This document shows, in pieces, positions 46,393-64,000 of a stretch of 64,000 bases of DNA. Position 1 is the stretch's first letter. Each line of letters starts with the position of its first letter. A program made the translations under genes and the position numbers. The notes beneath the pieces were generated by a model. The model had not been told where the DNA came from and made no database searches. It saw only the letters and a list, made by a program, of their open reading frames with translations. This DNA comes from Bacillota bacterium (lineage in GTDB: Bacteria; Bacillota; Dethiobacteria; DTU022): contig JAWSUE010000010.1 in the NCBI GenBank assembly GCA_033549065.1, positions 68,314 to 132,313 on the forward strand, given 5' to 3'.

Positions 46393-47247
46393 ATGCGATT
46401 AACAGATAATATATATTTTTCTCGTCTTGATTTTGATATTAACATGCCTGATGGTTCTAAAAATTCCAGGATGACTTATGCGGTATTGTTAAAATACCGG
46501 GATATTTGCCTGGTTGACAGTGGTGTAATGCCTACCATAAATGATCTTTTAAAAATGTTTAAAGAGGCAGAGGTGGAAGCCGGAGATATTAATTATTTAA
46601 TCAACACCCACTGCCACTTTGATCATTCGGGGGGGAATGCTCTTCTTAAAGAGCTTAATCCTCATTTGCAGTTAATGTCTCACCCTGCAGGGCAGGAATT
46701 TATAGAGTCCCCTGAAGCTCAAAATTCTGTAAGGCCGGTTCCATCATACAGGGACCTTGTTAAAGACGGCGTAAAGGTAGACAGGCTGCTTGCAGAAGGC
46801 GATCTGATTGACATAGGAACGCCACTTGAAATAATCTATACCCCCGGCCATTCCAGGGATTCAATAAGCGTCTACCTGCCAAAGGAAAAACTGGTAATTG
46901 TCGGAGATGCCATTCCTCTTAGCGGAGATCTTCCTATCTATGAAGATCTCAATGCACTGAAAGAATCCCTTAATAAAATTGGCAAACTCGACTATCGATA
47001 CATGCTGACAGCTTTTCAGGGTTTATATGATAGAAATGAAGATCCGGATGGAAAAAATAATCCCATAGATCAAGCCCTGGGATATCTGGATGTCATTGAT
47101 AAACATGTTAAGTCTATAACGGATGATGATCCATCCCTTAGTGTTAATGAAATTACCGGCAAATTAGTATCTGAATTGAACCTTCCACCGAAATTCCCTC
47201 CATTTGTATACACGAGTGTTGCAGAGCATGTAAAAAATTTAAAATAA
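46393..47247 (+). CDS. MBL-fold metallo-hydrolase
   Basis: HCHFDHSGG metal-binding motif. Confidence 0.7.
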   Translation: MRLTDNIYFSRLDFDINMPDGSKNSRMTYAVLLKYRDICLVDSGVMPTINDLLKMFKEAEVEAGDINYLINTHCHFDHSGGNALLKELNPHLQLMSHPAGQEFIESPEAQNSVRPVPSYRDLVKDGVKVDRLLAEGDLIDIGTPLEIIYTPGHSRDSISVYLPKEKLVIVGDAIPLSGDLPIYEDLNALKESLNKIGKLDYRYMLTAFQGLYDRNEDPDGKNNPIDQALGYLDVIDKHVKSITDDDPSLSVNEITGKLVSELNLPPKFPPFVYTSVAEHVKNLK

Positions 47248-47278
47248 TTTAGATCAAATAAATCAAAGGAGAACTACC

Positions 47279-48352
47279 ATGGGAGATACCTATCCTACCT
47301 TAAAAGTTGCGGCTGTCCAGGCTGTGCCGGTATTTCTTGATCGGGAAGCAACTACGGAAAAAGCATGTAAATTAATCCGGGAAGCCGGAGAGGGAGGAGC
47401 AAAATTTATAGTATTTCCGGAAGGTTTTATTCCTTCTCACCCGGTATGGTATCATTTTCACCCGGGCACAAGTTCTACAGGAATCAAGCTGAGTGTTGAA
47501 CTCTTCAAGAATTCTGTCGAAATCCCCGGCCCACAGATTACCGATCTCTGCCAGGCGGCCAAAGATGCTGAAGCCTATGTTGTAATGGGACTTTGTGAAA
47601 AATTACCTAATACTATTGGAACAATGTATAACACGCAGGTTTTTATCGGTCCTGACGGAAGTTACCTGGGCAAACATCAGAAGCTTGCGCCTACGGTTGG
47701 AGAGAGGTTGGTCCATAAAGGCGGGTTTGGTGACACTTTCGGTACTATTGAAACCGAGTATGGTCCTGTCAGCGGCCTGCTCTGCAGTGAAAACTCCAAT
47801 CCTTTGATGATCATGGCTTTATGCGCCGAAGGTACCAGAATCCATGCTGCGGCATGGCCAAATCATTGGAGCAAACTCCAGAAGTCAATGAAAGAATTTG
47901 TATCAATAGCTACATTGAATTTTGCTCAGGCTACAAAAGCATTTGTGATCAGTTCATGCGCTACAGTAGATGAACGAATGATCAAAATGATGGAATTAAC
48001 CCCTGAAGAAGAAAATATACTTAGAGAACCTGAATATGCCGGAGGGTCGATGATTGCGGCTCCCAATGGCAAATTGATAGCCGGACCCATGGGAAATGAA
48101 GAAGGTATCCTTTATGCAGATATTGATCTTGAACTATCTGTAAGACATAAGCTGGAGCATGATTTTGCCGGTCACTATAATCGTTCTGATGTATTTCAGC
48201 TGTTTATTAACAGAAATGCTCCACAACTATATATCCAGCAGGGAAAAAAATTTCCCGATCCGGAAAATCTTTTTGAAAAGATTCAGGATTCATCAGATAT
48301 TGATGAGTTGGCTTTGAATTATTTTCAGGATGAAGAATCAGATGGATGTTAA
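47279..48352 (+). CDS. Nitrilase-family carbon-nitrogen hydrolase
   Basis: Catalytic triad context FPEGF (Glu), Lys, and LLCSEN (Cys). 357 aa. Confidence 0.75.
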   Translation: MGDTYPTLKVAAVQAVPVFLDREATTEKACKLIREAGEGGAKFIVFPEGFIPSHPVWYHFHPGTSSTGIKLSVELFKNSVEIPGPQITDLCQAAKDAEAYVVMGLCEKLPNTIGTMYNTQVFIGPDGSYLGKHQKLAPTVGERLVHKGGFGDTFGTIETEYGPVSGLLCSENSNPLMIMALCAEGTRIHAAAWPNHWSKLQKSMKEFVSIATLNFAQATKAFVISSCATVDERMIKMMELTPEEENILREPEYAGGSMIAAPNGKLIAGPMGNEEGILYADIDLELSVRHKLEHDFAGHYNRSDVFQLFINRNAPQLYIQQGKKFPDPENLFEKIQDSSDIDELALNYFQDEESDGC

Positions 48353-48387
48353 TAAATAACTAATCAGCCCGGTGGGAGAGTTTATAG

Positions 48388-49530
48388 ATGAAAAAGGTTC
48401 TTATTGTTGACAGTAATTATGAAAACTGCATTGAAGCTGTAAGGGAAGTATTTGCCCAATTCCCTTCGAATCTGCGTGGGAAAAAGGTTGCCGTTAAGGT
48501 AAACGCGATCAAAGCAGGCGACCCGGACAAAGATGCCTTTACAACCAACTATAATTTTGTTAAAGCAGTAATCAGTCACCTGGAAACTCTCGGGCCATCG
48601 TCAATTGTTGTCGGTGATTCTGTGGGAACCGAGTCGTACGGTAATTCTGATGATGTTTTCACCAGGGCCAGGCTGAAAGAAGCTGCCGGTCCCTATTATA
48701 AAAACTTTAATCAGAATCTTGAACTGGTAGAATTGGGAAGACCTCTCAAACGAAAAGTGGCGGTATTGAAGGATATCCTTGATGCCGATTTTTATATTTC
48801 GCTCCCAAAATTGAAAACCCATGGATTAACCCTGCTGAGCGGGGGAATGAAAAATAATTTTGGACTGCTCACGGGAGCTCAAAAATCCTGGTACCATTAT
48901 TACTCAAAAACACCGGAAGCTTTTGCCTCGATCGTAACTGAAATGTTCCGTTTGCGACCCCCTGATCTGGTTGTCATGGATGCCGTTTTGGCTATGGAAG
49001 GTTACGGCCCGGCTTCTCCTGAAACTAGGTGGGTAAAAAAAGTAATTGCCTCAGATGATGCAGTAGCGCTCGATACAGTTGCTGCTAAAATTGTTGGATT
49101 TACCGTAGAAGAAGTGCCCACTTTATCCCAGGCCAGGGATTTAAGTTTGGGGGAAACTTTCCTGGAGAACATTGAGATTATTGGTGAGGCCCCTACTATA
49201 CAGGAATACCATCGTCCCACACCGCCTGAATTGTCTTACAGCTATAAAGCCGGGGTAGGCTCGGGCAGGACTTCAATCGAATTCTACCGGGTCCGGGTTG
49301 CCATGCGGCCGGTTTTTGATCCTGAAAAATGTCAGGCAGGTTGTACAATATGTGTCGATAACTGTCTATTTAAAGCTCTAAGCAGGGATGAGGGATTACC
49401 TGAGATTAATCCTGCTTTGTGTATGTTATGCAGTGGTTGCAAGGAAATTTGCCCTTATGATGCGGTACAGCTTCTACCGGATGATACGATAGTTAAAGAG
49501 CTGGAAATTAAAGAAAAAGACTGGATGTAA
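48388..49530 (+). CDS. DUF362-domain protein with C-terminal 2x[4Fe-4S] ferredoxin domain
   Basis: N-terminus KVAVKVN...DP resembles DUF362. C-terminus CQAGCTICVDNC...CMLCSGCKEICP. Confidence 0.6.
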   Translation: MKKVLIVDSNYENCIEAVREVFAQFPSNLRGKKVAVKVNAIKAGDPDKDAFTTNYNFVKAVISHLETLGPSSIVVGDSVGTESYGNSDDVFTRARLKEAAGPYYKNFNQNLELVELGRPLKRKVAVLKDILDADFYISLPKLKTHGLTLLSGGMKNNFGLLTGAQKSWYHYYSKTPEAFASIVTEMFRLRPPDLVVMDAVLAMEGYGPASPETRWVKKVIASDDAVALDTVAAKIVGFTVEEVPTLSQARDLSLGETFLENIEIIGEAPTIQEYHRPTPPELSYSYKAGVGSGRTSIEFYRVRVAMRPVFDPEKCQAGCTICVDNCLFKALSRDEGLPEINPALCMLCSGCKEICPYDAVQLLPDDTIVKELEIKEKDWM

Positions 49531-49668
49531 CCCAGGTACATTTCATCTCACTCCCATACCTAAAAAAGTATAAAAAAACAGATTAATCCAGGACAAGTAA
49601 TTTGGCAAATAACGGGAAAAGTTCGTTATTAAATCATTCCAAATGCTGACAAACAGGGGTAGGTTGTA

Positions 49669-49698
49669 TTGCTTTTTGAATGTCTGATATGCTATAAT
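49669..49698 (+). promoter_or_regulatory. Sigma-A promoter candidate
   Basis: TTGCTT, 18-nt spacer, TGcTATAAT (extended -10). Confidence 0.4.
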
Positions 49699-49729
49699 TC
49701 AGTAAATAAGACAAGGAGGTTTGACAGGT

Positions 49730-51049
49730 ATGCAATACGGTCAGTTTGCTGTTGATTATGAGCATCGCCCTTATAATCCTGAAAGAATGCGTATTGAAAG
49801 AGTAGAGCGGGCTCAGCAGGCTTTAAAAAAACATGGTCTCGGGGCGTTAATCCTTTATGACTATGATTATCACCGTTATTTAGGTTACTATTCTTACCAT
49901 CAATATGCGAGGCGCAGGTTAGGTACTTACGTATTATTGGTTCAGGGACAGGGATTTCCATATGTCAACGTTGATAAATATGAACACGGTTGGGAAAGCT
50001 TAAGGATGCCCTGGTTTGAAGGTAAAATGGTTTTAAAATCATCAAAACCTTACCAGCTTTGCAACGGGTTACCCGACACCCCCGAATTCATGGAAAAATC
50101 CTTTGAAGAGAACGCTGCAGAAATAAAAGCACTGCTTAAAAAGCATGATTTGCTTGATATGCCGGTCGGTATCGATGTTGCGAGCGCACACCTACTCGAT
50201 GTTTTGAGAAGAAACGGCTTAAATGTTGTAGATGGAAATAACTGTATGGTTGATGCCATCAGGGTAAAAACTGAGGATGAAATTCACTGTCTGCGCATGG
50301 CGGGTGCGATTACCGAAGCTGCTCACTGGGAAGTAGCCCAGGCGTTGCGTCCGGGAATGACTGAGCTGGAGATAGCCGGTATTGCGGCCAATGGATGTTT
50401 CAAGCATGGAGCAGAAGAACTTGAAGGCCCCAGCTTTGTCGTTTGTTCCGGTGAACGTTCCGGATACGGATTGCCGAACATGCCTACTGACAGAAGAGTA
50501 AGGCCTGGTGATTTTGTGGTTCTTGACATAAATGGTGTCAGCTTTAACGGCTACCGGACCTGTTTTTACCGTACATACCTGGTTGGTGACAAACCGACTG
50601 AATTCCAGAAAGAAGTTTATGATATCGCCTACGAAGGCTTGATGGCCATGTCGTCCTGCATGAAGCCGGGTATCACAACAGCCGATGTTCAGAAAGAATG
50701 GCTTAAAAAAGGCGATGCACCGGGACTCTGGGGTAGAGAACCAAAATGGCCGGAACCGGGACGTTATTTCTTTGGTTCAGGCGGACATCCCATAGGGCTG
50801 CGTTCAGGTGATCCGGGCGCAACCATAGCAGGTTCAGGCTGGATTTTCGGGGACTTCCCGGGTGGCAAAATTGAGAAGAACATGACATTTGCCAACGAAG
50901 TTGCAGTATTTACCTGGCTGGGAGACAGATGGGCAAAAGACGGTGTTAAACTGGAACACTGCGGTGTTGTAACCGATGACGGCTTTGAAATCTTCTACCG
51001 CTTCCCGATGAAAGACCTGATCGTTTGCGGATTGCCGGGCCTATACTAA
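49730..51049 (+). CDS. M24-family metallopeptidase/creatinase-like hydrolase (creatinase N-domain plus pita-bread fold)
   Basis: ATG 49730 lies 10 nt after AAGGAGG. Two-domain Xaa-Pro aminopeptidase/creatinase architecture, 439 aa. Confidence 0.7.
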   Translation: MQYGQFAVDYEHRPYNPERMRIERVERAQQALKKHGLGALILYDYDYHRYLGYYSYHQYARRRLGTYVLLVQGQGFPYVNVDKYEHGWESLRMPWFEGKMVLKSSKPYQLCNGLPDTPEFMEKSFEENAAEIKALLKKHDLLDMPVGIDVASAHLLDVLRRNGLNVVDGNNCMVDAIRVKTEDEIHCLRMAGAITEAAHWEVAQALRPGMTELEIAGIAANGCFKHGAEELEGPSFVVCSGERSGYGLPNMPTDRRVRPGDFVVLDINGVSFNGYRTCFYRTYLVGDKPTEFQKEVYDIAYEGLMAMSSCMKPGITTADVQKEWLKKGDAPGLWGREPKWPEPGRYFFGSGGHPIGLRSGDPGATIAGSGWIFGDFPGGKIEKNMTFANEVAVFTWLGDRWAKDGVKLEHCGVVTDDGFEIFYRFPMKDLIVCGLPGLY

Positions 51050-51082: not shown

Positions 51083-51133
51083 CGAAATATTCCTCACTCC
51101 CTTCGGGAGTGTGGAATATTTCTTTAGTTTTTT
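51083..51133 (+). terminator. Rho-independent terminator
   Basis: 17-bp stem GAAATATTCCTCACTCCC-ttcg-GGGAGTGTGGAATATTTC followed by TTTAGTTTTTT. Confidence 0.65.
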
Positions 51134-51200: not shown

Positions 51201-52517
51201 ATGCCTTCATCGAATAACCCCCGGGTAGTGATTACCCATCGAGAATCTATCCCCGGTACACCTGGCAGCTATACAAATGAAGAACTTGCTGTTGTCTATG
51301 AAATGGTCAGAGAATCGGTAGATATACTTGGTGGCATAGATTCTATAATAAAGCCGGGCGATAAAGTTGTAGTTAAGATCAATGCCGGTGTTCCTACTCC
51401 TGCAGACAAGGGATATGATACAGATCCACGAGTTCTTGAGGCTGTTATCAAGTTGATCAAAGAGGAAACAAAGGCGGAATCTGTTAAGGTAATTGAAAGA
51501 TCTGCTTCCTATGGGGACACTTCAAAATCTCTCGAGGTTTCCGGTTTAAAAGCTGCTGCTGAACGGGCAGGTGTTGATGAAATTATCAATCTGCAGCATG
51601 TTGAACGGGTTTCAGTTCAGGTACCTAAACCTGAAGTTCTTTTTGAACCGGTTATGCTTCCCCGGTGCCTACTTGAAGCCGACAGGATTATTTACATTCC
51701 CAAAATGAAAGTTCATAAGCTTACCCAGGTATCGCTGTCCATGAAGTTAAGCCAGGGTTTACTGGCCTGGAGCGATATTCACCGCAACCACCGGACCGAT
51801 ATTGATCAGAAAATGGCCGATCTCCTGCAGCTTATCAAGCCCGATCTTATTATCATGGATGCCCTTTGGCCTACGCAGGGTCAGGGTCCGGTATCGCCAT
51901 TTCCGGACGATTTAATCAAAGATTTTAATGTAATAATTGCCGGAACTGATTCGGTTGCAGTTGATACAGTTGCCTCTACTATTATGGGGTTTGAACCCCT
52001 TCACGAGATACCTATGATCAGAACCGCATCCATGCTCGGTCTGGGTGAAGGTAGCCTTGAAAAAATTGAAGTATTGGGCACTCCAATAGAGAAGGTTAAA
52101 CGTAACTTCAGGCGAGGTAATATTGACCTGGCCGGGATTCATCCCAAGGTTAAAGCTTATTACGGAAGCGCCTGTAAGGGTTGCATACATTTGACCAGGA
52201 CTAGTCTTGACTCATGGTTGGCCATTCCTGAAAACCTCAAGCAGCTAGAGCAGCTTGAACAGCTCACATTTATCATAGGGCCGCGGACTACAGTCCCCGA
52301 TAACATTCCACACAATCCTCCTCATTCATACACATTTGTTATTGGCGACTGTGCCTGTGAGCACAAGAATAAAGGCATATTTTTACCGGGTTGTACTTCC
52401 TGGAGTATCGCTCAGATGGACTTTATCGGAAAGACTGAAGAAGAACTGGTCGATTGGTATCTGAAACGTTACCCCGGGGTTGAGAAAGATGAGAATCAAT
52501 GCCCGTTAATACCCTAG
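51201..52517 (+). CDS. DUF362-domain protein with non-canonical Cys-rich C-terminus
   Basis: N-terminal region is paralogous to 48388 and 63460 (KVVVKINAG...DP, TDPRVLEAVIKLI). C-terminus CKGCIH...GDCACEH...PGC. Confidence 0.6.
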   Translation: MPSSNNPRVVITHRESIPGTPGSYTNEELAVVYEMVRESVDILGGIDSIIKPGDKVVVKINAGVPTPADKGYDTDPRVLEAVIKLIKEETKAESVKVIERSASYGDTSKSLEVSGLKAAAERAGVDEIINLQHVERVSVQVPKPEVLFEPVMLPRCLLEADRIIYIPKMKVHKLTQVSLSMKLSQGLLAWSDIHRNHRTDIDQKMADLLQLIKPDLIIMDALWPTQGQGPVSPFPDDLIKDFNVIIAGTDSVAVDTVASTIMGFEPLHEIPMIRTASMLGLGEGSLEKIEVLGTPIEKVKRNFRRGNIDLAGIHPKVKAYYGSACKGCIHLTRTSLDSWLAIPENLKQLEQLEQLTFIIGPRTTVPDNIPHNPPHSYTFVIGDCACEHKNKGIFLPGCTSWSIAQMDFIGKTEEELVDWYLKRYPGVEKDENQCPLIP

Positions 52518-52553
52518 CATTAAATTCTTACTTACAGGAGGATGATATTATCG

Positions 52554-53582
52554 ATGAAAGCGATGGTACTGGAAGAGTTTAACCAGCCTTTAAAATTGAG
52601 AGAGTTAGATATACCGAAGCCTGCCGCTGATGAAGTGCTGATCAAGGTGCGTGCTTGCAGTATTTGCGGAACAGATTTAAAAATTATCAGCGGCAAAATT
52701 GACACTGTTCCCCTGCCCCTGATACCCGGGCATGAATCAACCGGTGATGTAATCGAGATTGGGGCCGAAGTAAAAGATTTGAAAGTGGGCGACAGGGTAA
52801 CGGTGGATCTTTATGTAACCTGTGGTCAGTGCAAAAATTGTCTCGCCGGAAGAAATACCATTTGCATGGAATCAATAAAACGGTATGGTTTTGAAGTTAA
52901 CGGTGGCTTTGCCGAATACATGGTAGTCAAAGAAGAAAAAGCGGTAAAAGTACCCGACACTATGACCTACCCCGAAGCGGCGCTTATACCGGATGCTATT
53001 GCCACTTCTGTCCGGGCCTTTGCTGACAGGTATCATCTTCAGGAAGGTGAAATAGTGCTGGTTCTCGGCATAGGTGGCCTGGGAATACACGGTGTCCAGG
53101 TGGCAAAAGCATATGGAGCCACTGTAATTGCTGCAGATGTGGATAATAAAAAACTGCAGAGGGCCAAAGAATTGGGCGCAGATTATACCTGCAACACCGC
53201 CGAAGAAGATCTTGTCGCATTTTGCAAATCACTGACAAACGGTTATGGTGTGGATGTTGTCGGTGAGTATGTAGGCATCCCAAAGGTCAGTGAACTTGGG
53301 TTGAAATGCCTGAGAATGGGTGGAACGATGATCTTCCTCGGTTATGCTCCCGGTACTGTTTTTGAGGTTCCCTCCATGGATATAGCTATGGGCGAGAGAA
53401 CTATTACCGGTTCGAGAGCAATGGACAGGAAGAGTATGCTGGAAGCAATCAGGTTGGTCAGCGAAGGTAAGGTAAAGCCGCAGGTAGACAGCTACTTTGC
53501 GTTGGAAGATGCAAATGCAGCGCTGGAGAGGTTGAAAGGCGAAGGCTACCTTGGCAGGGGATTGCTTGCTATAGATTTATAA
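52554..53582 (+). CDS. Zinc-dependent alcohol dehydrogenase (MDR family)
   Basis: N-terminus MKAMVLEEF, structural-zinc CGQCKNC motif, Rossmann GIGGLG. Confidence 0.8.
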   Translation: MKAMVLEEFNQPLKLRELDIPKPAADEVLIKVRACSICGTDLKIISGKIDTVPLPLIPGHESTGDVIEIGAEVKDLKVGDRVTVDLYVTCGQCKNCLAGRNTICMESIKRYGFEVNGGFAEYMVVKEEKAVKVPDTMTYPEAALIPDAIATSVRAFADRYHLQEGEIVLVLGIGGLGIHGVQVAKAYGATVIAADVDNKKLQRAKELGADYTCNTAEEDLVAFCKSLTNGYGVDVVGEYVGIPKVSELGLKCLRMGGTMIFLGYAPGTVFEVPSMDIAMGERTITGSRAMDRKSMLEAIRLVSEGKVKPQVDSYFALEDANAALERLKGEGYLGRGLLAIDL

Positions 53583-56575: not shown

Positions 56576-56592
56576 TAAATATGCAACTATTG

Positions 56593-56628
56593 GAAGGGCT
56601 GTCGGAAGAGCAGCCCTTCTCACTTTCC
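56593..56628 (+). terminator. Probable terminator
   Basis: GAAGGGCTG-tcggaagag-CAGCCCTTC with a weak T-tail. Confidence 0.45.
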
Positions 56629-56664: not shown

Positions 56665-56693
56665 TTGAAAAATTGTTAGCGAAATAATATAGT
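56665..56693 (+). promoter_or_regulatory. Promoter candidate with overlapping inverted repeat
   Basis: TTGAAA, 17-nt spacer, TATAGT. Inverted repeat TAGTCAT-18 nt-ATGACTA begins in the -10 element and extends to 56723. Confidence 0.35.
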
Positions 56694-56845
56694 CATAGTA
56701 TCATATGACGTCTGATGACTAAATATTTAAACAAATTATTTCCTGCACTTTTAAAGTAGTCAGCCATAGATAAGGAAAATGTGTCTATAATTTGATCGAT
56801 GTCATACTGATGGGCCTAAATATTAATAGGTAGGAGTTGAATGCT

Positions 56846-57607
56846 ATGAAGGAAATGTTCTCTTTAGAAGGAAAGGTAGCTTTGGTTACCGGTGCCGCAC
56901 AGGGGATAGGCAAGGAAATGGCCTTGGGTTTTGCCAGGTCCGGTGCTGATCTCTGCTTAGTAGATCTAAACCTTGAAAAACTGGAAGCTGTAAAAAAAGA
57001 AATTGAAGATCTTGGTAAGAAGTGTCTGGCCTTAAAAGTGAATCTTAATTCAGTTGAAGAAATTGAAAAGATGGCTGCAGATGCATATGCAAAGTTTGGA
57101 AAGATAGATATACTCGCAAATATTGCAGGGGTAAATGTTCACAAGGCTGCTGAAGAAATGACCGAAGAAGATTGGGATTTTGTTCTCGATGTAAACTTGA
57201 AAGCTCTATTCTTCTGCTGTAAAGCAGTCGGCAAATATATGCTGGAAAAAGGCAGCGGAAGAATTATTAATATGAGTTCATCCTTTGGAATAGTCGGTTT
57301 TTGGGGCCGCACAGCCTATGCTTCCAGCAAGGCCGCTGTTTCCAACCTGACAAAGACTCTGGCTATTGAATGGTCCGGAAAGGGCATCAATGTTAACGCA
57401 ATTGCTCCCGGTCCGGTTTGGACAGAAGCGCGTGATCACCTCTTTTCTGATAAAGAATTCTATAAAAAATTAATGGAAAAACTGCCGATAAACAGGGTAG
57501 CCAAGCCGATCGATATTGTCGGTCCGGCCATTTTCCTGGCCAGTCCAGCCTCAGATTTTGTAACCGGGGAAACACTGCTTGTTGATGGTGGTTGGTGCGC
57601 GCACTAA
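56846..57607 (+). CDS. SDR-family oxidoreductase
   Basis: TGAAQGIG Rossmann motif and YASSK catalytic motif. ATG 56846 lies 9 nt after GGTAGGAG. Confidence 0.8.
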   Translation: MKEMFSLEGKVALVTGAAQGIGKEMALGFARSGADLCLVDLNLEKLEAVKKEIEDLGKKCLALKVNLNSVEEIEKMAADAYAKFGKIDILANIAGVNVHKAAEEMTEEDWDFVLDVNLKALFFCCKAVGKYMLEKGSGRIINMSSSFGIVGFWGRTAYASSKAAVSNLTKTLAIEWSGKGINVNAIAPGPVWTEARDHLFSDKEFYKKLMEKLPINRVAKPIDIVGPAIFLASPASDFVTGETLLVDGGWCAH

Positions 57608-57648
57608 TACTATTGGCTCTAATAGATCAAGTAGGAGGAAAATAAACA

Positions 57649-58197
57649 TGAATATTGACATTCACACTCACTATTTACCGCAGGAATTTATAGACCTGGT
57701 CAAAAAGGATCCGGTGAAGTACCAGGCCAGAATTGAAAAGAACGACCTTGGGGAAGAGATTATTTATCATGATCAGGGATATTCCTATCCTCTCTATCCC
57801 GGTTTTTATGATCTTGAGGCACGTCTTCGTGATATGGACGCTAGGAACATTGATCTGGATATTTTATCAATAGCACCCACGCTGTATTATTACTGGGCGG
57901 AAAACTCTCTTGCTCTTGAAATCGCAAAAATATGCAATGACAGCGTATACAGGATGGTCCAACAAAAACCTGAAAGACTGAAGGCGATGGCTACAGTTCC
58001 GAACAATAACGCACTGGGGACCTGCCCTTAAAGCGCTGATTGATACGCATTCAGCTGATAAGATAATGTTGGGTAGCGATTACCCCTTTGATATGGCCGA
58101 TCCTGATCCTGTAAGAAGCGTAAAAAGTTTAAATCTTGATAGTGATACAGAAAAGAAAGTTCTCGGTAGCAATGCAGAAAACTTGTTTCGGGATTGA
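57649..58197 (+). pseudogene. Amidohydrolase-2 (ACMSD-like) remnant with internal deletion and frameshift
   Basis: N-terminal fragment MNIDIHTHY... ends at the 58031 stop. A C-terminal fragment ...ADKIMLGSDYPF...NAENLFRD runs in the +1 frame to 58197. About 120 middle residues are missing. Confidence 0.6.
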
Positions 58198-58240
58198 TTT
58201 GAAACTGATTGAGATTTGTGAAAACTAAGAGGTGATAAAT

Positions 58241-60082
58241 GTGGACTGCTTAAAAGGCAAATTGTTGGAAATTAATTTATCCAGCGGCCAGACCAGGGTG
58301 CGCGATATTGATGATAAAGTTCAGAAGCTGTTCTTTGGGGGCAGGTCTCTGGGCGCAAAACTGCTTTATGATGAACTAATGAAAGGAGTAGAACCCCTTT
58401 CACCGGATAATAAGCTTTTTGTTTTAACCGGTCCTGTAACCGGAACCATCGTGCCGAATGCGGGGAAGTATGTGGTTGTAACCAAATCACCGTTGACCGG
58501 AGCTTTTCTTGATTCCTATGCCAGTGGTTTGATATCGGCACAGATCCGTTTTGCCGGTTATGATGGTTTGCTGATCAGTGGAAAAGCTGAAAAACCGGTT
58601 TATATCTGGATTAAAGACGATCAGGTTGAAATAAGAGATGCCGGTCATCTCTGGGGTAAAGATACGATCGAATCAGAGGATCTGATCAAAGAGGAAACAG
58701 AAGATCAGGCCGGTGTGATGGTCATCGGCCCTGCCGGAGAGAAGATGGTTAGAATAGCCAGTATTAACAGTGATCACTACCGGCAGGCAGGCAGGGGCGG
58801 CGGTGGAGCTGTCATGGGTTATAAAAACCTGAAAGGCATAGCAGTTTTTGGTACCGGTGATGTAATCCCCCATGACGGGAAAAAGCTGCAAAAGAAATAT
58901 GAAGAAGACCTATCAAAGCTGCTCTCAAGTGATGTGGGCGTTGCCAGAAAGAGATTTGGTACTCCCCTAACCCTGACAATCACAAACAAGGCAGGAATGC
59001 TGCCGGTCAATAATTTTCAGAAATGTACTTTTCCGGAGGCTGTTGATCAGATCGATGGTTTAGGCGTTGAAAAATCAACGATTAAAACACGGGCTTGCTG
59101 GGGATGCATGGTTGCCTGTTCGAAAATAACCAAGGTTATAGAGGAGGGCCCCTATGAAGGTGATGAAGTCGAAGGACCTGAATATGAAACACTGAGTATT
59201 TTGGGATCAAACCTGGGTATCGCCACCCTGCCTCCGATAATCAGGGCTAATATACTTTGTGACAGGTTGGGCATCGATACCATCTCTGCCGGTGTTGTTA
59301 TCGCTTTCGTTATGGAGTGTTACCAGAGAGATCTTCTCAGTGAAGACGAAATTGGTGTCAAAAATCCCGCTTTCGGTAATGATGCAGCAGTTATGGAATT
59401 GATCGAGATGATTGCTTACAGGCGGGGCTTCGGTGATAAAATGGCTGAAGGTACTCTGCGCCTTGCTGAAGTTGTCGGTAAAGGCAGCAGTGTATTTGCC
59501 ATGCATGTGAAAGGTATGGAGTTCCCGGGGTATGAACCTAGAGCTGCCTTCGGAGCATGTCTTTCTTATGCTGTATCCCCCCGCGGCGCCTGTCACCGCC
59601 GGGCCTGGCCACCTGCCAAAGAAGTGCTCGGAGGATACCCTCCCTTTACCACGGAAGGCAAAGCGGAAATCGTCAGAGATCTCTATAATGAAAATGGTAT
59701 CCTGCACAGCCTGCTGGTATGCGATTTCCCCGCTAAATTTATACCGCTCAATATGGCAGATTACGCCGAGTATGTAACCTATGCCTGCGGTATGGAAACC
59801 ACCCGGGAAGACCTGCAGCAGATGACAGAACGTGGTGAAACGATGATCCGCATGTTCAACAACAGGGAAGGATTCACCCGGGATGATGATACTCTGCCGG
59901 CCAGGATATTGGAAGAAACCCTATCCGATGGCCCAAACCCGGGACAGCGTTTTACGAAAGCCGATCTCGATTTTATGATCGATGAGTATTATGCACTGAG
60001 GGGATGGGATTCAAAGGGAACACCTTTGCCTGAGACCTTGAAAAAACTGGGCATAGAGGATCAGGGGAGGGCTCTAAAATGA
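58241..60082 (+). CDS. Aldehyde:ferredoxin oxidoreductase family tungsten enzyme (AOR), paralog 2
   Basis: GKLLEINLSSG...GGRSLG AOR N-domain. GTG 58241 lies 6 nt after AAGAGGTGA. Confidence 0.85.
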   Translation: MDCLKGKLLEINLSSGQTRVRDIDDKVQKLFFGGRSLGAKLLYDELMKGVEPLSPDNKLFVLTGPVTGTIVPNAGKYVVVTKSPLTGAFLDSYASGLISAQIRFAGYDGLLISGKAEKPVYIWIKDDQVEIRDAGHLWGKDTIESEDLIKEETEDQAGVMVIGPAGEKMVRIASINSDHYRQAGRGGGGAVMGYKNLKGIAVFGTGDVIPHDGKKLQKKYEEDLSKLLSSDVGVARKRFGTPLTLTITNKAGMLPVNNFQKCTFPEAVDQIDGLGVEKSTIKTRACWGCMVACSKITKVIEEGPYEGDEVEGPEYETLSILGSNLGIATLPPIIRANILCDRLGIDTISAGVVIAFVMECYQRDLLSEDEIGVKNPAFGNDAAVMELIEMIAYRRGFGDKMAEGTLRLAEVVGKGSSVFAMHVKGMEFPGYEPRAAFGACLSYAVSPRGACHRRAWPPAKEVLGGYPPFTTEGKAEIVRDLYNENGILHSLLVCDFPAKFIPLNMADYAEYVTYACGMETTREDLQQMTERGETMIRMFNNREGFTRDDDTLPARILEETLSDGPNPGQRFTKADLDFMIDEYYALRGWDSKGTPLPETLKKLGIEDQGRALK

Positions 60083-60471
60083 AAAGAATAAAAGTAATCA
60101 AGGAAAACTGTTATGACTGCAGAATTTGTGAACTTGTCTGCTCCCAGACTCATACTGGCGTATACAGACCTATGATGAGCCGCATAAAAGCGCCTTCTTC
60201 AATACCGGGGTCGGATAAACCTGTCGTCTGTCGTCAGTGTAAAAAACCTAAATGCGTGGAAGCCTGTCCGACCGGTGCTCTGACCAAAGGTGAGGAATGG
60301 ATCCTCTTTGACGAATCCCTTTGTGACAGCTGTGGGTTATGTGTGGAGGCCTGTCCTTTCGATGCTATATGGCTGGTTGAAGAGAAACTTCTAAAATGTG
60401 ATTTATGTGATGGAAATCCCCAGTGCGTTGCCGTCTGTCCCGGCAAGGCACTCGTTTATGAAGATTATTGA
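60079..60471 (+). CDS. 4Fe-4S dicluster ferredoxin-like electron-transfer subunit (AorA-like)
   Basis: Four Cys clusters (CxxCxxC...CP repeated). ATGA overlap with the AOR gene. Confidence 0.7.
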   Translation: MKRIKVIKENCYDCRICELVCSQTHTGVYRPMMSRIKAPSSIPGSDKPVVCRQCKKPKCVEACPTGALTKGEEWILFDESLCDSCGLCVEACPFDAIWLVEEKLLKCDLCDGNPQCVAVCPGKALVYEDY

Positions 60472-60499: not shown

Positions 60500-60775
60500 A
60501 TGAAAGTAATGATTCATCGGGTAGCGATAGCCGAAAACCTGCCTCCTCATTTTGAATTTAAACTTGAGGATAATGCAACATTTCACGATCTTGTTGTTCG
60601 TCTTAATGATGAATACGGCGAAGGAACCAGCGAAAAGATACTGTCCGGGGACAAACTTCGGGAGGGTGTTTTAGTCCTGGTTAATGGTAAATCCCTGCTT
60701 CAACTGGGAGGCCCTGAGCTGATTTTGAATGACGGCGACGATATTATGCTGGCTGTAACTGTATTTGGTGGTTAA
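60500..60775 (+). CDS. MoaD/ThiS-like ubiquitin-fold sulfur-carrier protein
   Basis: 91 aa, ends in VFGG (C-terminal Gly-Gly). Follows the AOR and ferredoxin genes. Confidence 0.55.
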   Translation: MKVMIHRVAIAENLPPHFEFKLEDNATFHDLVVRLNDEYGEGTSEKILSGDKLREGVLVLVNGKSLLQLGGPELILNDGDDIMLAVTVFGG

Positions 60776-60782
60776 AGGGGAT

Positions 60783-62540
60783 ATGATTACAATGGATTAT
60801 TATTTGAGTGAAGTCCGGGATGGAATGCAAATTGACTGGGATGTTCCGATCAAGATGGATGACGGATTAATATTAAAAGCGGATGTATTCAGGCCGGTTG
60901 AAGAAGGGAAATATCCGGTAATTATGACCTACGGCCCCTATGGAAAAGGCCTTTCTTTCCAGGAAGGTTACCCGGGCCAGTGGAATAAAATGATCAGTGC
61001 CCATCCCGATGTTCCATATGGTTCAACGAATAAATATCAAAATTGGGAAGCTGTAGATCCTGAAAAGTGGGTTTCTGAAGGGTATGTTTGTGTCAGGGTT
61101 GATTCCAGAGGTTGCGGTCGGTCACCAGGGTTTGTTGATCACTTTTCAGAACGGGAAACGAAAGACTTCTATCAATGTATCGAATGGGCTGGTACCCAAC
61201 TCTGGTCAAATGGTAAGGTTGGGTTAAACGGAATCTCCTATTATGCAATGAACCAGTGGCAGGTAGCTTCACTGAACCCTCCTCACCTATGTGCAATTTG
61301 CCCCTGGGAAGGGTCATCTGATTGGTACAGGGATGCGACTCATCACGGTGGTATGCTCTCAACATTTTGGACTCACTGGTATGATATGCAGGTAAAAACA
61401 GTGCAATATGGTTTAGGGGAAAGAGGCCTTCGTAATAAGGTTACAGGACAATTGGTTTGTGGTGATGAGAATCTATCGGATATTGAACTTGCAAAAAACC
61501 GTGCATCCTTTGGTGATGAAATTCTTGCTCACCCTTTAGATGATGAATATCATCGTGAAAGATCCCCTCAGTGGGACAAGATTACTGTTCCCATGCTTTC
61601 ATCAGGGAACTGGGGTGGACAAGGCCTGCATTTAAGAGGCAACGTAGAGGGTTTTGTCCGGGCTGCTTCAAAACAAAAGTGGCTGGAAATTCACGGTTTG
61701 GAACACTGGACCCATTTTTATACAGATTACGGGGTTAATCTGCAGAAAAGATTCTTTGATTATTTCCTGAAGGGCGAGGAAAATGGATGGGACAAGCAGC
61801 CCTCTATTCAACTTCAAATTCGCCAGGTTGATGGTACTTTCGTCCAGCGCTTTGAGAACGAATGGCCTCTGGCCAGAACTGAATGGCGTAAATATTATTT
61901 ACACCCTCGCGGTTATAAGCTTTCAACTGAATATGCAGATGACAAAACAAAAATCGAATTTGAAGCTCTTGGTGATGGGTTGACATTTCTTTCAGATCCA
62001 TTTTCTGAAGAAACTGAAATAACTGGTCCGGTAGCATCGAAACTATTTATATCATCAAGTACGGAAGACGCTGATATTTTTGTTGTACTGAGGCTTTTCA
62101 GGCCTGACCTGCGTGAAGTAAACTTCGTAGGAGCTGTAGATCCGAACATGCCTCTTACGCTTGGATGGCTTAGAGCTTCGCATGGAAAGTTAGATCCACA
62201 ATTAAATAAGCCTTATCGCCCTTACAATAAGCATGATGAAAAACAGCCTCTGAAACCCGGTGTGCCTTTTGAATTAGACGTAGAACTATGGCCAACTTGC
62301 ATTGTTATCCCTAAAGGTTTTCGTATCGGATTTTCAATTCGTGGGAAAGACTACATATATCTCGAAAAAACAGGTATAAGAATTCCGAGCTTTAAAAATG
62401 AACTTAGAGGCTGTGGACCTTTTCTGCACGATGAACCGAGAGACCGGTTAAGTGGTGTTTTCGATGGTCGGACTGCTTTGCATTTCAGGCATGATAAACA
62501 GCCTTATCTTTTGGTTCCTGTTATACCGACTGTCGGTTAG
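60783..62540 (+). CDS. CocE/NonD-family alpha/beta hydrolase (S15 X-Pro dipeptidyl-peptidase-like)
   Basis: N-terminus VPIKMDDGLILKADVFRP...YPVIMTYGPYGKG, about 586 aa. Confidence 0.7.
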   Translation: MITMDYYLSEVRDGMQIDWDVPIKMDDGLILKADVFRPVEEGKYPVIMTYGPYGKGLSFQEGYPGQWNKMISAHPDVPYGSTNKYQNWEAVDPEKWVSEGYVCVRVDSRGCGRSPGFVDHFSERETKDFYQCIEWAGTQLWSNGKVGLNGISYYAMNQWQVASLNPPHLCAICPWEGSSDWYRDATHHGGMLSTFWTHWYDMQVKTVQYGLGERGLRNKVTGQLVCGDENLSDIELAKNRASFGDEILAHPLDDEYHRERSPQWDKITVPMLSSGNWGGQGLHLRGNVEGFVRAASKQKWLEIHGLEHWTHFYTDYGVNLQKRFFDYFLKGEENGWDKQPSIQLQIRQVDGTFVQRFENEWPLARTEWRKYYLHPRGYKLSTEYADDKTKIEFEALGDGLTFLSDPFSEETEITGPVASKLFISSSTEDADIFVVLRLFRPDLREVNFVGAVDPNMPLTLGWLRASHGKLDPQLNKPYRPYNKHDEKQPLKPGVPFELDVELWPTCIVIPKGFRIGFSIRGKDYIYLEKTGIRIPSFKNELRGCGPFLHDEPRDRLSGVFDGRTALHFRHDKQPYLLVPVIPTVG

Positions 62541-62569
62541 GTTAATTTGATATAGTGGAGGCAAATATC

Positions 62570-63400
62570 ATGAATGTTAAGGTCGCGCTGGTACAAACCA
62601 AGGTTGATGAAAGTGAAAATAGCTATGAGATTAATATACAGAGAGCATATGATTATATCGATAATGCTTTAAAAACAGGAGCACAGTTAATCTGTTTTCC
62701 CGAATCATATCCCGGTCCCTGGAAGAAGCCTCTTGACTTTTCTCCCCATGATGATCTGGCTAGAATAGCAAAGCAGAAAAGTATATATCTCATTTACGGT
62801 ACAGCTGAAGAAGCCGAAGGACATCCCGGTAGGCACAGGATTGTGCAGGTTATGCTTGGTCCTGATGGTAATACTGTCGGTAAATATATGCGCACATCTC
62901 CACTCGGTCCCTGGATTTATCGGAAGAGCAGGTTCTGGGATCTGGAATATCTTGAAGCAGAAGATCTGCCTGTTTTTGAAACCGACCTGGGTGTAATCGG
63001 CATGCTGATCTGCAGTGAGGTTTACGTGCCTGAACTCAGCAGAATTCTCGCTATAAAAGGAGCTGAAATCACCTTTTTACCTGCCGGAATCTATAAAGCC
63101 GAACTCTTGGATACCTGGCGAACCCTGATCCATGCCCGGGCAATAGAAAATCTGATGTATACAGCCACCTGCCAGAATATATTGGGAGCTGAAGAAGGAT
63201 TATGTATGGTGGCAAGTCCGGAAAATATCATCGGCGAGATAAAAACTGAAGGAGTTCTGACAGTTGATATAGACCTTCAGCGGATCAGGGAGATGCGGGA
63301 AGCGACAGATCAATATTCTCTTCCTCTGCAATATCGGACCAAGCCGGGTCTTTTAAAACAGTGGCGCCGACCAGTCATTTATGGAGATCTTGTTAAGTAA
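62570..63400 (+). CDS. Carbon-nitrogen hydrolase (nitrilase superfamily, class 13-like)
   Basis: ICFPES (Glu), Lys, and GMLICSE (Cys) triad context. 276 aa. ATG lies 8 nt after GTGGAGG. Confidence 0.75.
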   Translation: MNVKVALVQTKVDESENSYEINIQRAYDYIDNALKTGAQLICFPESYPGPWKKPLDFSPHDDLARIAKQKSIYLIYGTAEEAEGHPGRHRIVQVMLGPDGNTVGKYMRTSPLGPWIYRKSRFWDLEYLEAEDLPVFETDLGVIGMLICSEVYVPELSRILAIKGAEITFLPAGIYKAELLDTWRTLIHARAIENLMYTATCQNILGAEEGLCMVASPENIIGEIKTEGVLTVDIDLQRIREMREATDQYSLPLQYRTKPGLLKQWRRPVIYGDLVK

Positions 63401-63459
63401 ATAATTAGATTACTTAATCCCGGGAATTGCCGGCAGATTAAAGTAAAGGAGTTTATCAG

Positions 63460-64000
63460 ATGAAGACCAAACCAAAGGTTTCAATCGTCCACGGGCAAAA
63501 TGTAAGTGGTACTCCATGCAGCTATAATGAAGCGGATCTTGATGCAGTATACAACCTGGTTAAGGAAAGTATAGACTTAATTGGGGGGATAAGTTCTGTT
63601 GTCCAACCGGGAGACAGGGTGCTTTTGAAGGTCAACAGTACCGGTGAAGCTGCTGCCGATCGAGCAGCAACAACAGATCCCCGCGTGCTTCAATCGGTTA
63701 TCCGCCTGATCAGAGATGAGGCAAAGCCTCGTTATATTAAGGTAATGGATCGAACTGGCGCTGCTCGCTGCACAGAACAATCTTTTTGTGCTACCGGATT
63801 AAAAGACGCTGCACTGAATGCCGGTGCCGATGATGTTATCAACCTCGAAAATGAAGCACGAGTGCAGGTGCGAATTCCGAAAGCCATGGCCCTGACCAAA
63901 GATGTGATCCACATCCCTAAGTGCTTGTTGGAAGCCGATACACTGATTTACATTCCAAAGCTAAAAGCACATAAGATCACATCTGTGAGCCTCACAATGA
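63460..64000 (+). CDS. DUF362-domain protein, paralog 3 (partial, runs off the window end)
   Basis: ATG lies 8 nt after AAAGGAG. N-terminal region is paralogous to 51201 (VYNLVKESIDLIGGISS..PGDRVLLKVN...TDPRVLQSVIRLI). Confidence 0.55.
   Translation, partial: MKTKPKVSIVHGQNVSGTPCSYNEADLDAVYNLVKESIDLIGGISSVVQPGDRVLLKVNSTGEAAADRAATTDPRVLQSVIRLIRDEAKPRYIKVMDRTGAARCTEQSFCATGLKDAALNAGADDVINLENEARVQVRIPKAMALTKDVIHIPKCLLEADTLIYIPKLKAHKITSVSLTM

Follow-up and report, generated by a model that had tools for sequence, protein, structure and literature searches.

A probable DUF362-centred anaerobic heterocycle or amide catabolic cluster in a Bacillota genome, made largely of families without assigned function

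We analysed a stretch of 64,000 nucleotides from contig JAWSUE010000010.1 of an uncultured anaerobic Bacillota bacterium, referred to here as the window, focusing on the genes located at 46393-64000. These genes probably form part of an anaerobic heterocycle or amide catabolic cluster made largely of families without assigned function. The region consists of at least three separately transcribed modules (A, B and C) with separate evolutionary counterparts, and not of the single island of approximately 18 kb proposed in a preliminary description of this DNA. Every module centres on a DUF362 protein, which is paired with a C-N hydrolase and with a dehydrogenase or tungsten aldehyde oxidoreductase. 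The gene set is functionally associated and is not a chance juxtaposition, as orthologous blocks recurred together in other genomes.

Three modules and their recurrence in other genomes

According to the open reading frame (ORF) listing and Pfam, the plus strand carries every gene of the region 46393-64000, of which 16 are intact, one is a pseudogene and one is truncated at the end of the window. The minus strand showed short overlapping ORFs only in the same listing. All the genes named in the preliminary description were reproduced with their order, strand and domains. The left edge previously set at 46393 was moved, as a co-directional Liv-type ABC transporter ended 66 bp ahead of the first gene, and the first transcription unit most likely starts at this transporter. 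The cluster was confirmed to run beyond 64 kb, since the DUF362 gene cut by the window end corresponds to a 436-amino-acid (aa) protein, P0123, on the same contig. The features of the three modules are as follows.

Module A, 41.5-51.0 kb
41471-46326, plus strand: Liv-type ABC transporter with two permeases, a Peripla_BP_6 binding protein and two ATPases (Pfam)
46393-47247, plus strand: metallo-beta-lactamase-fold (MBL) hydrolase, 284 aa (PF00753, E 4e-23)
47279-48352, plus strand: nitrilase-like CN_hydrolase, CNhyd1, 357 aa (PF00795, E 2e-37)
48388-49530, plus strand: DUF362_1, a DUF362 domain with a C-terminal 2x[4Fe-4S] ferredoxin domain, 380 aa (PF04015, E 6e-41; Fer4)
49721-51049, plus strand: divergent M24 protein of the creatinase, prolidase or ectoine-hydrolase family, 442 aa (PF00557, E 7e-33)
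51084-51125, plus strand: hairpin with a downstream U-run, probably terminating module A (dG -26.2 kcal/mol, z -7.5; none of 200 shuffles as stable)

Module B, 51.2-56.6 kb
51201-52517, plus strand: DUF362_2, 438 aa, with four conserved Cys (C325, C328, C384, C398) (PF04015, E 1e-40)
52542-53582, plus strand: protein of the Zn-dependent alcohol dehydrogenase (Zn-ADH) family, 346 aa (ADH_N, ADH_zinc_N)
53663-54499, plus strand: PEP_hydrolase-like TIM barrel (TBST domain, COG5564), 278 aa (PF09370, E 2e-96)
54512-55762, plus strand: UPF0261 protein of the Tm-1/MarK family, 416 aa (PF06792, E 2e-39; PF23189, E 4e-64)
55790-56575, plus strand: creatininase-family hydrolase, 261 aa (PF02633, E 2e-58)
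56592-56621, plus strand: hairpin with a weak U-tract, probable end of module B (dG -19.2 kcal/mol, z -3.9; no shuffle folded as well)

Module C, 56.8 to beyond 64 kb
56837-57607, plus strand: short-chain dehydrogenase/reductase (SDR), 256 aa (adh_short_C2, E 9e-65)
57648-58191, plus strand: pseudogene of an ACMSD-like Amidohydro_2 decarboxylase/hydrolase (tblastn with the intact ortholog of locus L087)
58232-60082, plus strand: AOR2, of the tungsten/molybdopterin aldehyde:ferredoxin oxidoreductase (AOR) family, 616 aa (AFOR_N, E 5e-76; AFOR_C, E 5e-124)
60079-60471, plus strand: polyferredoxin, 130 aa, with 16 Cys in four CxxCxxCxxxC-type motifs (Fer4 families)
60500-60775, plus strand: MoaD/ThiS/Urm1-like small protein, 91 aa, ending in ...VFGG (Gly-Gly) (PF09138, E 2e-5)
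60765-62540, plus strand: CocE/NonD-family serine hydrolase, 591 aa (Peptidase_S15, PepX_C)
62555-63400, plus strand: Nit2/omega-amidase-like CN_hydrolase, CNhyd2, 281 aa (PF00795, E 4e-36)
63460-64000, plus strand: DUF362_3, cut by the window end (PF04015, E 2e-20 on 180 residues)

The terminators reported previously near 51083 and 56593 were found to be real hairpins, and both occupy the widest intergenic gaps (151 and 261 bp). The remaining gaps were mostly 80 bp or shorter, with the exception of 190 bp ahead of the M24 gene. The AT-rich gap of approximately 260 bp after module B also contained promoter-like sites, among them one at 56665-56693 in which 10 of 12 positions were matched. In a generic terminator scan, the overall number (21) showed no enrichment over the 17.8 expected.

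The clearest counterpart was detected in locus L087 from a related Bacillota metagenome-assembled genome (MAG), in which the genes for LivHMJGF, Amidohydro_2, a molybdenum (Mo) hydroxylase (F/S/L/M), DUF362, Zn-ADH, TIM barrel, UPF0261 and Amidohydro_1 are arranged in this order on one strand. The identities to the window proteins were 59-70% for LivHMJGF, located directly ahead of the module-B-type operon, 71% for DUF362_2, 73% for the Zn-ADH at the same position, 87% for the TIM barrel, 68% for UPF0261 and 32-53% for the Mo hydroxylase. A third Bacillota MAG (L001) showed the order of SSF transporter, TIM barrel, UPF0261, GntR, Zn-ADH, M24 and Mo hydroxylase F/S/L/M, with identities of 64% for the TIM barrel, 40% for UPF0261 and 43-57% for the Mo hydroxylase subunits. 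The TIM barrel of L002 was 57% identical to that of the window, and the UPF0261 gene was always adjacent to the TIM-barrel gene in these loci. Module B is thus a conserved operon repeatedly attached to a split nicotinate-dehydrogenase-like Mo hydroxylase. The link to the Mo hydroxylase at 27-31 kb, supposed in the preliminary description, gained support in this way, as a homologous split hydroxylase was located beside the module-B genes in L087 and L001 and beside a DUF362 ortholog in L017.

The hydrolase accompanying the TIM/UPF0261 pair differed among the loci. It was creatininase-like in the window (55790-56575), Amidohydro_1 in L087 (14692-16047) and M24 in L001 (13206-14465). The occupation of one slot by three unrelated hydrolase families suggests an equivalent role, and looks like non-orthologous replacement at one pathway step.

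Another recurring set was identified in L088-L093, representing at least four independent contigs from ENA, NCBI and JGI data. This set was composed of nitroreductase, DUF362 and cupin genes, with AOR, HIBDH-like and GFO/IDH/MocA genes on the opposite strand, plus an Amidohydro_2 gene, and shares five families with the module C array of the window. A ThiS/MoaD-like gene was found beside the AOR gene in L089-L093, and a CN_hydrolase was called in L089-L092, L093 stopping short of that position. The identities to the window were measured for L088 and L089 only, and the AORs of L090-L093 were identified by Pfam only. The DUF362 proteins were 53-56% identical to DUF362_2 and the AORs 54-55% identical to AOR2 in these two loci, and the CN_hydrolase of L089 showed 52% identity to CNhyd2. 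The CN_hydrolase recurs with the other DUF362 type in the L089-L092 clusters, with the two genes 5-6 kb apart in the same cluster. AORs with 54-55% identity to AOR2 were present beside DUF362 genes in L043, L051, L088 and L089, and AOR2-type enzymes adjoin both DUF362 types.

Orthologs of DUF362_1 numbered in the hundreds, with 54-67% identity, and were largely from Thermodesulfobacteriota-type metagenome bins. Their genes usually took one of two positions, immediately behind the final gene of a TRAP or Liv transporter or immediately behind a cyclic amidohydrolase gene. The best PDB matches of this amidohydrolase were L-hydantoinase and allantoinase (E 1e-57 to 1e-60; top, 1GKR with E 1.7e-60), and enamidase was not among the 60 PDB matches listed. 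In a census of 139 proteins encoded within two genes of a DUF362_1 ortholog, DctM (11), GlcG/HbpS-like (11), HIBDH-like (10) and Liv permease (10) proteins were followed by cupin (7), 2-hydroxy-acid dehydrogenase (6) and Amidohydro_1 (5) proteins.

Some of these neighbourhoods combined several of the window families. In L004, L005 and L012, which belong to one contig family, creatininase, SDR, AOR, cupin, hydantoinase-like amidohydrolase, DUF362 (64%), M24 and CocE (54%) genes were found together. L017 contained the genes for a Mo hydroxylase (57%), a cupin, a hydantoinase-like amidohydrolase, DUF362 (64%) and a HIBDH-like protein. The loci were also cross-linked with each other, the M24 proteins of L001 and L004 sharing 57% identity and the cupins of L017 and L088 sharing 72%. 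The neighbourhoods of DUF362_1 orthologs were heterogeneous, and some had no window-type neighbour, such as L003. In other anaerobes the modules or their cores were physically coupled to the split nicotinate-dehydrogenase-like Mo hydroxylase and to organic-acid transporters. Overall, we regard the modules as a recurring gene set reshuffled between genomes and not as a fixed operon. The preliminary description had named scattering of the genes in orthologous genomes as the result that would speak against it, and the blocks were instead found together, for example in L087, L001 and L088-L093.

Four metagenome loci had a CinA-family gene (MoCF_biosynth, CinA_KH and CinA domains) near a DUF362_1 ortholog. 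It immediately followed the ortholog in L070, L072 and L083, and lay two genes ahead of it in L066. The C-terminal domain of CinA includes nicotinamide mononucleotide (NMN) deamidases (PncC). This neighbour hints that DUF362_1 is tied to the metabolism of pyridine nucleotides or nicotinate, or to a cofactor derived from nicotinate.

Proteins of the modules and the upstream region

The scores of the focal proteins against NCBIfam models were nearly all well under the cut-offs. The exceptions were the CocE/NonD protein, which passed a subfamily model, and the SDR, which passed a generic subfamily model marginally.

The structures of two DUF362 proteins were modelled by AlphaFold2 (AF2), with a predicted local distance difference test (pLDDT) score of 85 for DUF362_1 and 90.4 for DUF362_2. 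In Foldseek searches against PDB, the top 12 domain-covering matches of DUF362_1 were all LarA or LarA homologs (probability 1.0, E down to 2e-6), and so were the top 19 matches of DUF362_2 (probability 1.0, E down to 5e-9, approximately 390-510 columns). The likeness was at the fold level only, with identities of 10-16% and TM-scores of 0.31-0.42. Both DUF362 types are thus predicted to have the two-domain fold of LarA (lactate racemase), a hydride-shuttling nickel-pincer enzyme, with Fe-S or Cys-rich additions. A link at the sequence level was rejected, as the search of PDB with the A2 profile gave one spurious match (E 3.1) and no LarA. The connection to LarA therefore rests on the fold and on Pfam clan membership, DUF362 being placed in the same clan as the N-terminal domain of LarA (PMC11770544).

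The two DUF362 types aligned over 257 columns (hhalign probability, 99.9), and both carry an invariant PKxKxH-x9-K motif. The invariant residues are H145-x9-K155 in DUF362_1 and H172-x9-K182 in DUF362_2, and the spacing equals that of His174-Lys184 in LarA1, with a candidate third His out of register between the types. Among the LarA1 residues R75, H108, H174, K184 and H200, His174 is catalytic and Lys184 tethers the cofactor (PMC11770544). The shared spacing is no more than a lead. The ferredoxin domain of the DUF362_1 type was labelled 'PreA-like' by JGI. The DUF362 family is large, with 5,479 representatives of 50%-identity clusters collected from a single query at E <=1e-3. DUF362_3 was 47% identical to DUF362_2 over 176 aa within the window, and the identity was 58% for full-length P0123.

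Within module B, the Zn-ADH was under all NCBIfam cut-offs. The sole PDB match of the TIM barrel was the structure of the uncharacterised protein Mll9387 (2P10, E 9e-65). UPF0261 matched Tm-1 (3WRW, E 3e-53) and 9MPY, a 'UPF0261 domain-containing protein' (E 3e-41, residues 7-349) which we take to be MarK. Judging from these matches, the window UPF0261 protein is probably an ATP-dependent kinase. The preliminary description regarded several members as having no known function; this was upheld in that no focal protein passed an equivalog model and no assigned function was found for DUF362 in the literature examined, and it did not hold for UPF0261, because the stand-alone member MarK is an aromatic kinase catalysing the ATP-dependent phosphorylation of phenolic ketones (PMC12624787). 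UPF0261 and the PF09370 TIM barrel co-evolve in bacteria and are fused in plant Tm-1 (PMC5028733). The creatininase-like protein scored 112.8 bits against TIGR04448 (cut-off, 235), and thus fell short of the curated creatininase. It also matched MftE and IolN, both under the cut-offs (83 bits for IolN). Creatinine degradation was not indicated, as the window proteins did not reach the curated creatininase and creatinase models.

As for module A, the MBL protein was under every NCBIfam beta-lactamase cut-off, and an MBL protein with 30% identity followed the DUF362 ortholog in L061. CNhyd1, with the Cys motif 'LLCSENSNP', scored 179 bits against TIGR04048 for the Nit6803-family nitrilase (cut-off, 502.6). 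Neither CNhyd1 nor CNhyd2 reached the true nitrilase models (Nit6803 and archaeal equivalogs), and their membership is at the level of the CN_hydrolase superfamily only. The combination of 'nitrilase + DUF362' was rejected as a conserved pair, because it was seen in none of the loci fetched around DUF362_1 orthologs. The NCBIfam matches of the M24 protein were far under the cut-offs, the best being DddP, PepQ and DoeA with 50-66 bits, and creatinase models gave no match at E <=1e-10. Visual inspection of this sequence suggested that Cys takes the place of one canonical metal-ligand Asp.

In module C, among the 25 NCBIfam matches listed for the SDR, only the generic PRK07231 glucose 1-dehydrogenase subfamily was passed (218.6 versus 215 bits). 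The amidohydrolase relic mentioned in the preliminary description was real. Its two pieces (57648-58001 and 57991-58191) lie in different frames with approximately 143 codons missing between them, and match residues 1-117 (69%) and 261-327 (70%) of the intact 327-aa Amidohydro_2 protein of L087, the best PDB match of which was human ACMSD (E 6.5e-52). The assignment of AOR2 to the tungsten/molybdopterin AOR family is based on both AFOR domains and the adjacent ferredoxin-type partner. The polyferredoxin gene overlaps the AOR2 stop codon by 4 bp, and its product is the probable electron-transfer partner of AOR2. The CocE/NonD protein scored 246.9 bits against TIGR00976 (cut-off, 66.3), which was the sole clear family-level pass among the focal genes. 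The best PDB match of CNhyd2 was Nit2 (2W1V, E 2e-15), along with beta-ureidopropionase-like proteins and N-carbamoyl-D-amino-acid amidohydrolases, and its score against NF040852 was 64.5 bits (cut-off, 500).

The three modules are the right-hand part of a larger catabolic region, which extends from approximately 22 to beyond 64 kb (approximately 42 kb) and starts near a GntR gene at 22.2 kb. The following two features of the upstream part bear on the modules.

22219-22983, plus strand: GntR/FCD regulator (Pfam)
27237-30952, plus strand: four-gene Mo hydroxylase with FAD, 2Fe-2S and split large (L and M) subunits (Pfam; FAD_binding_5, Fer2_2, MoCoBD_1, MoCoBD_2)

The large subunit of the Mo hydroxylase is encoded by two overlapping genes, L at 28677-29948 (423 aa, MoCoBD_1) and M at 29945-30952 (335 aa, MoCoBD_2), and the same split was found in L001 and L087. 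The best PDB match of the L subunit was NdhL of Eubacterium barkeri nicotinate dehydrogenase (3HRD_A, 425 aa) over the full length with E 2.5e-85, followed by 4-hydroxybenzoyl-CoA reductase (1RM6, 5.6e-74), which was also the top NCBIfam match of the M subunit. The FAD subunit of 4-hydroxybenzoyl-CoA reductase carries an extra 4Fe-4S insertion. The FAD subunit in the window has only four scattered Cys and no Cys cluster, and assignment of the Mo enzyme as 4-hydroxybenzoyl-CoA reductase was thus unlikely.

The catabolic flank from approximately 22 kb encodes the GntR/FCD regulator, an HpcH/CitE-like lyase (23073), a TRAP transporter, the Mo hydroxylase, a cupin and a Zn-ADH, and further a LUD-domain protein, a Mo-bisPGD enzyme, two small ferredoxins, the first AOR, an MFS transporter, a C45 Ntn hydrolase (39366) and an SDR. 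The two Cys-rich ferredoxin-like ORFs, 35324-35656 (110 aa) and 35732-35992 (86 aa) on the plus strand, lie in the 728-bp stretch between the Mo-bisPGD oxidoreductase and the first AOR, which suggests a second Mo/W electron-transfer module. Across the window, three DUF362 proteins, two CN_hydrolases, two AORs, two Zn-ADHs and two SDRs occur as paralogues with 26-47% identity within pairs. This paralogy favours parallel modules serving several related substrates over a single linear pathway.

The absence of a regulator stated in the preliminary description applied to 46.4-64 kb, where no regulator gene was found. It did not apply to the wider region, as the GntR/FCD gene was the only regulator gene found across 22-64 kb. 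A GntR homolog with 33% identity to its product is encoded between the UPF0261 and Zn-ADH genes of L001. Two near-identical GT-n-AC half-palindromes, TAGTTTGACAG and TTGTCTGACAG, were located upstream of the GntR/FCD gene (22145-22192), and a weaker look-alike, ATGTCATACTG, at 56799-56809 upstream of the SDR gene opening module C. On weak evidence, these three elements may be candidate operators.

The GC content of the focal genes (0.40-0.48) and that of the third codon positions (GC3, 0.34-0.49) were inside the range of the flanks. The compositional comparison suggested in the preliminary description therefore did not point to horizontal acquisition, as neither value distinguished the region from its flanks, with no compositional sign of recent gain. 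The lowest GC3 values of the region were those of the MBL, nitrilase-like and CocE/NonD genes (0.34-0.36, versus 0.40-0.49 in their neighbours). None of these three genes (46393-48352 and 60765-62540) was present in the syntenic array of L087, and they may be later insertions.

Two further observations concern the left part of the window. The left end (274-7139, plus strand) encodes a Bmp/PnrA-type nucleoside ABC transporter, a pyrimidine-nucleoside phosphorylase and DeoC, and a xanthine/uracil permease is encoded beside the cluster of L087 (16833-18164). This nearby nucleobase theme may bear on the substrate. A 534-aa ORF at 10007-11611 (plus strand) contained both an RNase H domain (residues 4-142) and a phosphofructokinase domain (residues 178-481), possibly as an unusual fusion or by a missed stop or frameshift.

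Proposed pathway and alternative explanations

We infer that the modules provide parallel routes for the oxygen-free breakdown of related N-heteroaromatic acids of the pyridine, pyrimidine or purine type, a reading to which we give an even chance of being correct. After uptake of the substrate, Mo-dependent hydroxylation beside the ring nitrogen would yield a lactam. DUF362 would then carry out hydride or electron chemistry on the ring, aided by the adjacent NAD(P) dehydrogenase. In module B, UPF0261 could phosphorylate the enol or lactam oxygen in an ATP-dependent manner, and the PEP-mutase-like TIM barrel would act on the resulting phospho-enol or imidate. Hydrolytic ring opening would be performed by the creatininase-like or M24 protein in the window and by Amidohydro_1 in the relatives, the resulting amide or carbamoyl group would be hydrolysed by the CN_hydrolases, and the released aldehyde would be oxidised by AOR with transfer of electrons to the polyferredoxin. 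In bacterial pyridine-ring pathways, the last reaction is usually that of omega-amidase (PMC9304392). The preliminary description had supposed hydrolysis followed by redox chemistry, which was reversed here, since the gene order in the relatives (Mo hydroxylase, DUF362, dehydrogenase, TIM/UPF0261, cyclic amidohydrolase) suggested that hydroxylation and reduction precede hydrolysis. The nitrile, lactam or N-heterocycle it had named are candidate substrates only.

Several points weigh against the proposed degradation of N-heteroaromatic acids. No focal protein reached an NCBIfam equivalog cut-off, and the candidate ring-opening families all include members acting on non-C-N or non-ring bonds, such as IolN, a C-C hydrolase of the creatininase family, and the M24 peptidases. 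The LarA fold, as predicted by modelling, speaks for a racemase or epimerase reaction no less than for net reduction. The transporters, GlcG/HbpS-like proteins and hydroxy-acid or semialdehyde dehydrogenases, which were the top neighbours of DUF362_1, would fit small hydroxy-acid metabolism equally well. The Mo hydroxylase of the window is approximately 20 kb from module B and not adjacent to it, and no CNhyd1 homolog was found beside DUF362 in the fetched loci around approximately 80 DUF362_1 orthologs. No 10-mer or GntR-type half-palindrome was convincingly common to the promoters of the three modules, and no Rfam family, including the molybdenum and tungsten cofactor (Moco/Tuco) riboswitches, reached the gathering score anywhere in the window. 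In addition, module C may be partly inactive here, one of its genes being a pseudogene, and misassembly is possible because the source is a MAG.

The foremost alternative is the salvage of amino-acid-derived cyclic amides or amidines, or of unusual peptides (creatinine/creatine, hydantoins, ectoine-like compounds, lactams and amino-acid esters), with each hydrolase acting on its own substrate and the redox enzymes processing the products. It is consistent with the family-level matches to creatininase, creatinase, ectoine hydrolase, prolidase, N-carbamoyl-amino-acid amidohydrolases, CocE/NonD and the C45 Ntn acyltransferase/hydrolase (39366), with the Liv-type transporter, which is of the amino-acid type, and with the paralogous modules, which suggest several substrates. 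We nevertheless consider such salvage unlikely, as the scores for creatininase, DoeA and PepQ were 2- to 12-fold under the curated cut-offs, and the conserved link to the nicotinate-dehydrogenase-like Mo hydroxylase, the ACMSD-like decarboxylase, AOR and TIM/UPF0261 would be left unexplained.

The catabolism of phenolic or other aromatic acids without a ring nitrogen was also considered. In this case UPF0261 would phosphorylate a phenolic hydroxyl group, the ACMSD-like protein would be a hydroxybenzoate (de)carboxylase and the Mo enzyme a dehydroxylase like 4-hydroxybenzoyl-CoA reductase, DUF362 and AOR would reduce the ring or carboxyl group, and the creatininase-like protein would cleave a C-C bond of a cyclic diketone as IolN does. 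Peripla_BP_6 binding proteins can bind aromatic acids, and the Amidohydro_2 family includes LigW, gamma-resorcylate decarboxylase and salicylate decarboxylase. The matches of the L (1RM6) and M subunits to 4-hydroxybenzoyl-CoA reductase, that of the creatininase-like protein to IolN, and that of UPF0261 to 9MPY agree with this explanation, as does the precedent of MarK for UPF0261 (PMC12624787). On the other hand, the two CN_hydrolases here, and the CN_hydrolases and hydantoinase-like amidohydrolases of the related clusters, belong to families acting on C-N bonds; the extra 4Fe-4S insertion is not apparent in the FAD subunit; and Pfam detected neither a CoA ligase nor a CoA transferase or biotin carboxylase in 22-64 kb. 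Moreover, MarK acts without a TIM partner and in an acvCDEF operon, which is absent here. A phenolic substrate thus appeared quite improbable. The idea of no common function, that is, of unrelated small operons adjacent in a gene-dense, co-oriented part of the chromosome, draws on the two strong hairpins dividing the region, the missing shared operator motif and riboswitch, the heterogeneous DUF362_1 neighbourhoods such as L003 and the nitrilase-DUF362_1 pair seen only in the window, and is highly unlikely because the same families, often with 52-87% identity, recur together on many independent contigs cross-linked by M24, cupin, AOR and CocE, a synteny by which chance juxtaposition is largely refuted.

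Returning to the breakdown of N-heteroaromatic acids, a more far-reaching proposal can be formulated for DUF362, which we regard as speculative and decidedly doubtful. DUF362 might represent a second, redox-wired branch of the LarA superfamily, having a hydride-accepting cofactor (the nickel-pincer nucleotide or a similar one) coupled to [4Fe-4S] or Cys-bound metal sites, so that low-potential electrons from ferredoxin would be delivered as hydride to dearomatise or reduce N-heteroaromatic rings. It would then be a flavin-free, oxygen-free counterpart of 6-hydroxynicotinate reductase or dihydropyrimidine dehydrogenase. The UPF0261/TIM pair would be a new ATP-dependent system phosphorylating the enol or lactam oxygen to drive the next step, and the two together might constitute a widespread undescribed anaerobic route for N-heterocycles.

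In the locus and its relatives, DUF362 and UPF0261/TIM are found in a defined catabolic context that is conserved and also includes a nicotinate-dehydrogenase-like Mo hydroxylase, a tungsten AOR and C-N hydrolases. The L087 operon, which is compact, is the clearest example, providing a gene set that is expressible and assayable with a short list of candidate substrates. If the proposed breakdown of N-heteroaromatic acids is right, it would help to explain how strict anaerobes take apart pyridine-, pyrimidine- or purine-type rings in the absence of oxygenases, and LarA-type chemistry would reach beyond racemisation. The UPF0261/TIM pair is the prokaryotic form of plant Tm-1, for which MarK is the one biochemical data point.

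Comparison with described systems

The DUF362 proteins differ from LarA in several respects. They were assigned to PF04015 and not to DUF2088, and have additions absent from the LarA literature examined, namely a 2x[4Fe-4S] domain in type 1 and four conserved Cys in types 2 and 3. Their genes sit in catabolic clusters with Mo and W enzymes, unlike those of LarA. Genes for LarB, LarC and LarE, which make the nickel-pincer nucleotide, were found neither in the window nor among the 25 commonest neighbour families of DUF362_1 orthologs.

MarK and Tm-1 share with the window protein the full-length N- and C-terminal domains of UPF0261, and the pairing of UPF0261 with the PF09370 TIM barrel is common to the Tm-1 family and the window. 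MarK belongs to an acetovanillone operon with the acvCDEF-type biotin carboxylase and phosphatase and has no TIM partner, whereas the window has neither acvCDEF-type genes nor carboxylase domains. Unlike MarK, the window UPF0261/TIM pair is located with DUF362, Zn-ADH, a cyclic-amide-type hydrolase and, in the relatives, the Mo hydroxylase.

In the reductive pyrimidine/hydantoin pathway, a ring reductase is followed by dihydropyrimidinase or hydantoinase and then by an N-carbamoyl amidohydrolase of the CN_hydrolase family. The related clusters encode a similar mix, namely DUF362 as a putative Fe-S redox protein, a hydantoinase/allantoinase-like Amidohydro_1 and a carbamoylase/beta-ureidopropionase-related CN_hydrolase. 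The window contains neither a flavoprotein dihydropyrimidine dehydrogenase nor Amidohydro_1, and has extra Mo-, W- and ATP-dependent parts. The system resembles reductive pyrimidine/hydantoin catabolism in logic and not in enzymes.

The nearest described system is the nicotinate fermentation cluster of E. barkeri. The cluster, described by Alhapel et al. in 2006, reportedly comprises NdhFSLM, Hnr, Ena, Hgd and downstream genes. Like the window, it encodes a four-gene Mo hydroxylase with the NdhL/NdhM split. The E. barkeri enamidase (Amidohydro_1), Hgd (HIBDH/NAD_binding_2), B12 mutase, aconitase-type dehydratase and lyase of the ICL/phosphoenolpyruvate (PEP)-mutase type were not detected by Pfam in window ORFs of at least 120 aa, in which the HpcH/CitE-like lyase at 23073 was the only lyase found. 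The window adds DUF362, TIM/UPF0261, AOR, CN_hydrolases, M24 and the creatininase-like protein, and the amidohydrolases of the relatives resemble hydantoinase and allantoinase, unlike the E. barkeri enamidase. L017 and L087 both combine Mo hydroxylase, DUF362, amidohydrolase and dehydrogenase genes, in an order that presumably mirrors ndh-hnr-ena-hgd. The nicotinate pathway of E. barkeri proceeds by hydroxylation, ring reduction and hydrolytic ring opening with loss of ammonia, followed by aldehyde handling (PMC9304392). This logic of hydroxylating, reducing and hydrolysing would be common to the E. barkeri cluster and the pathway proposed for the window.

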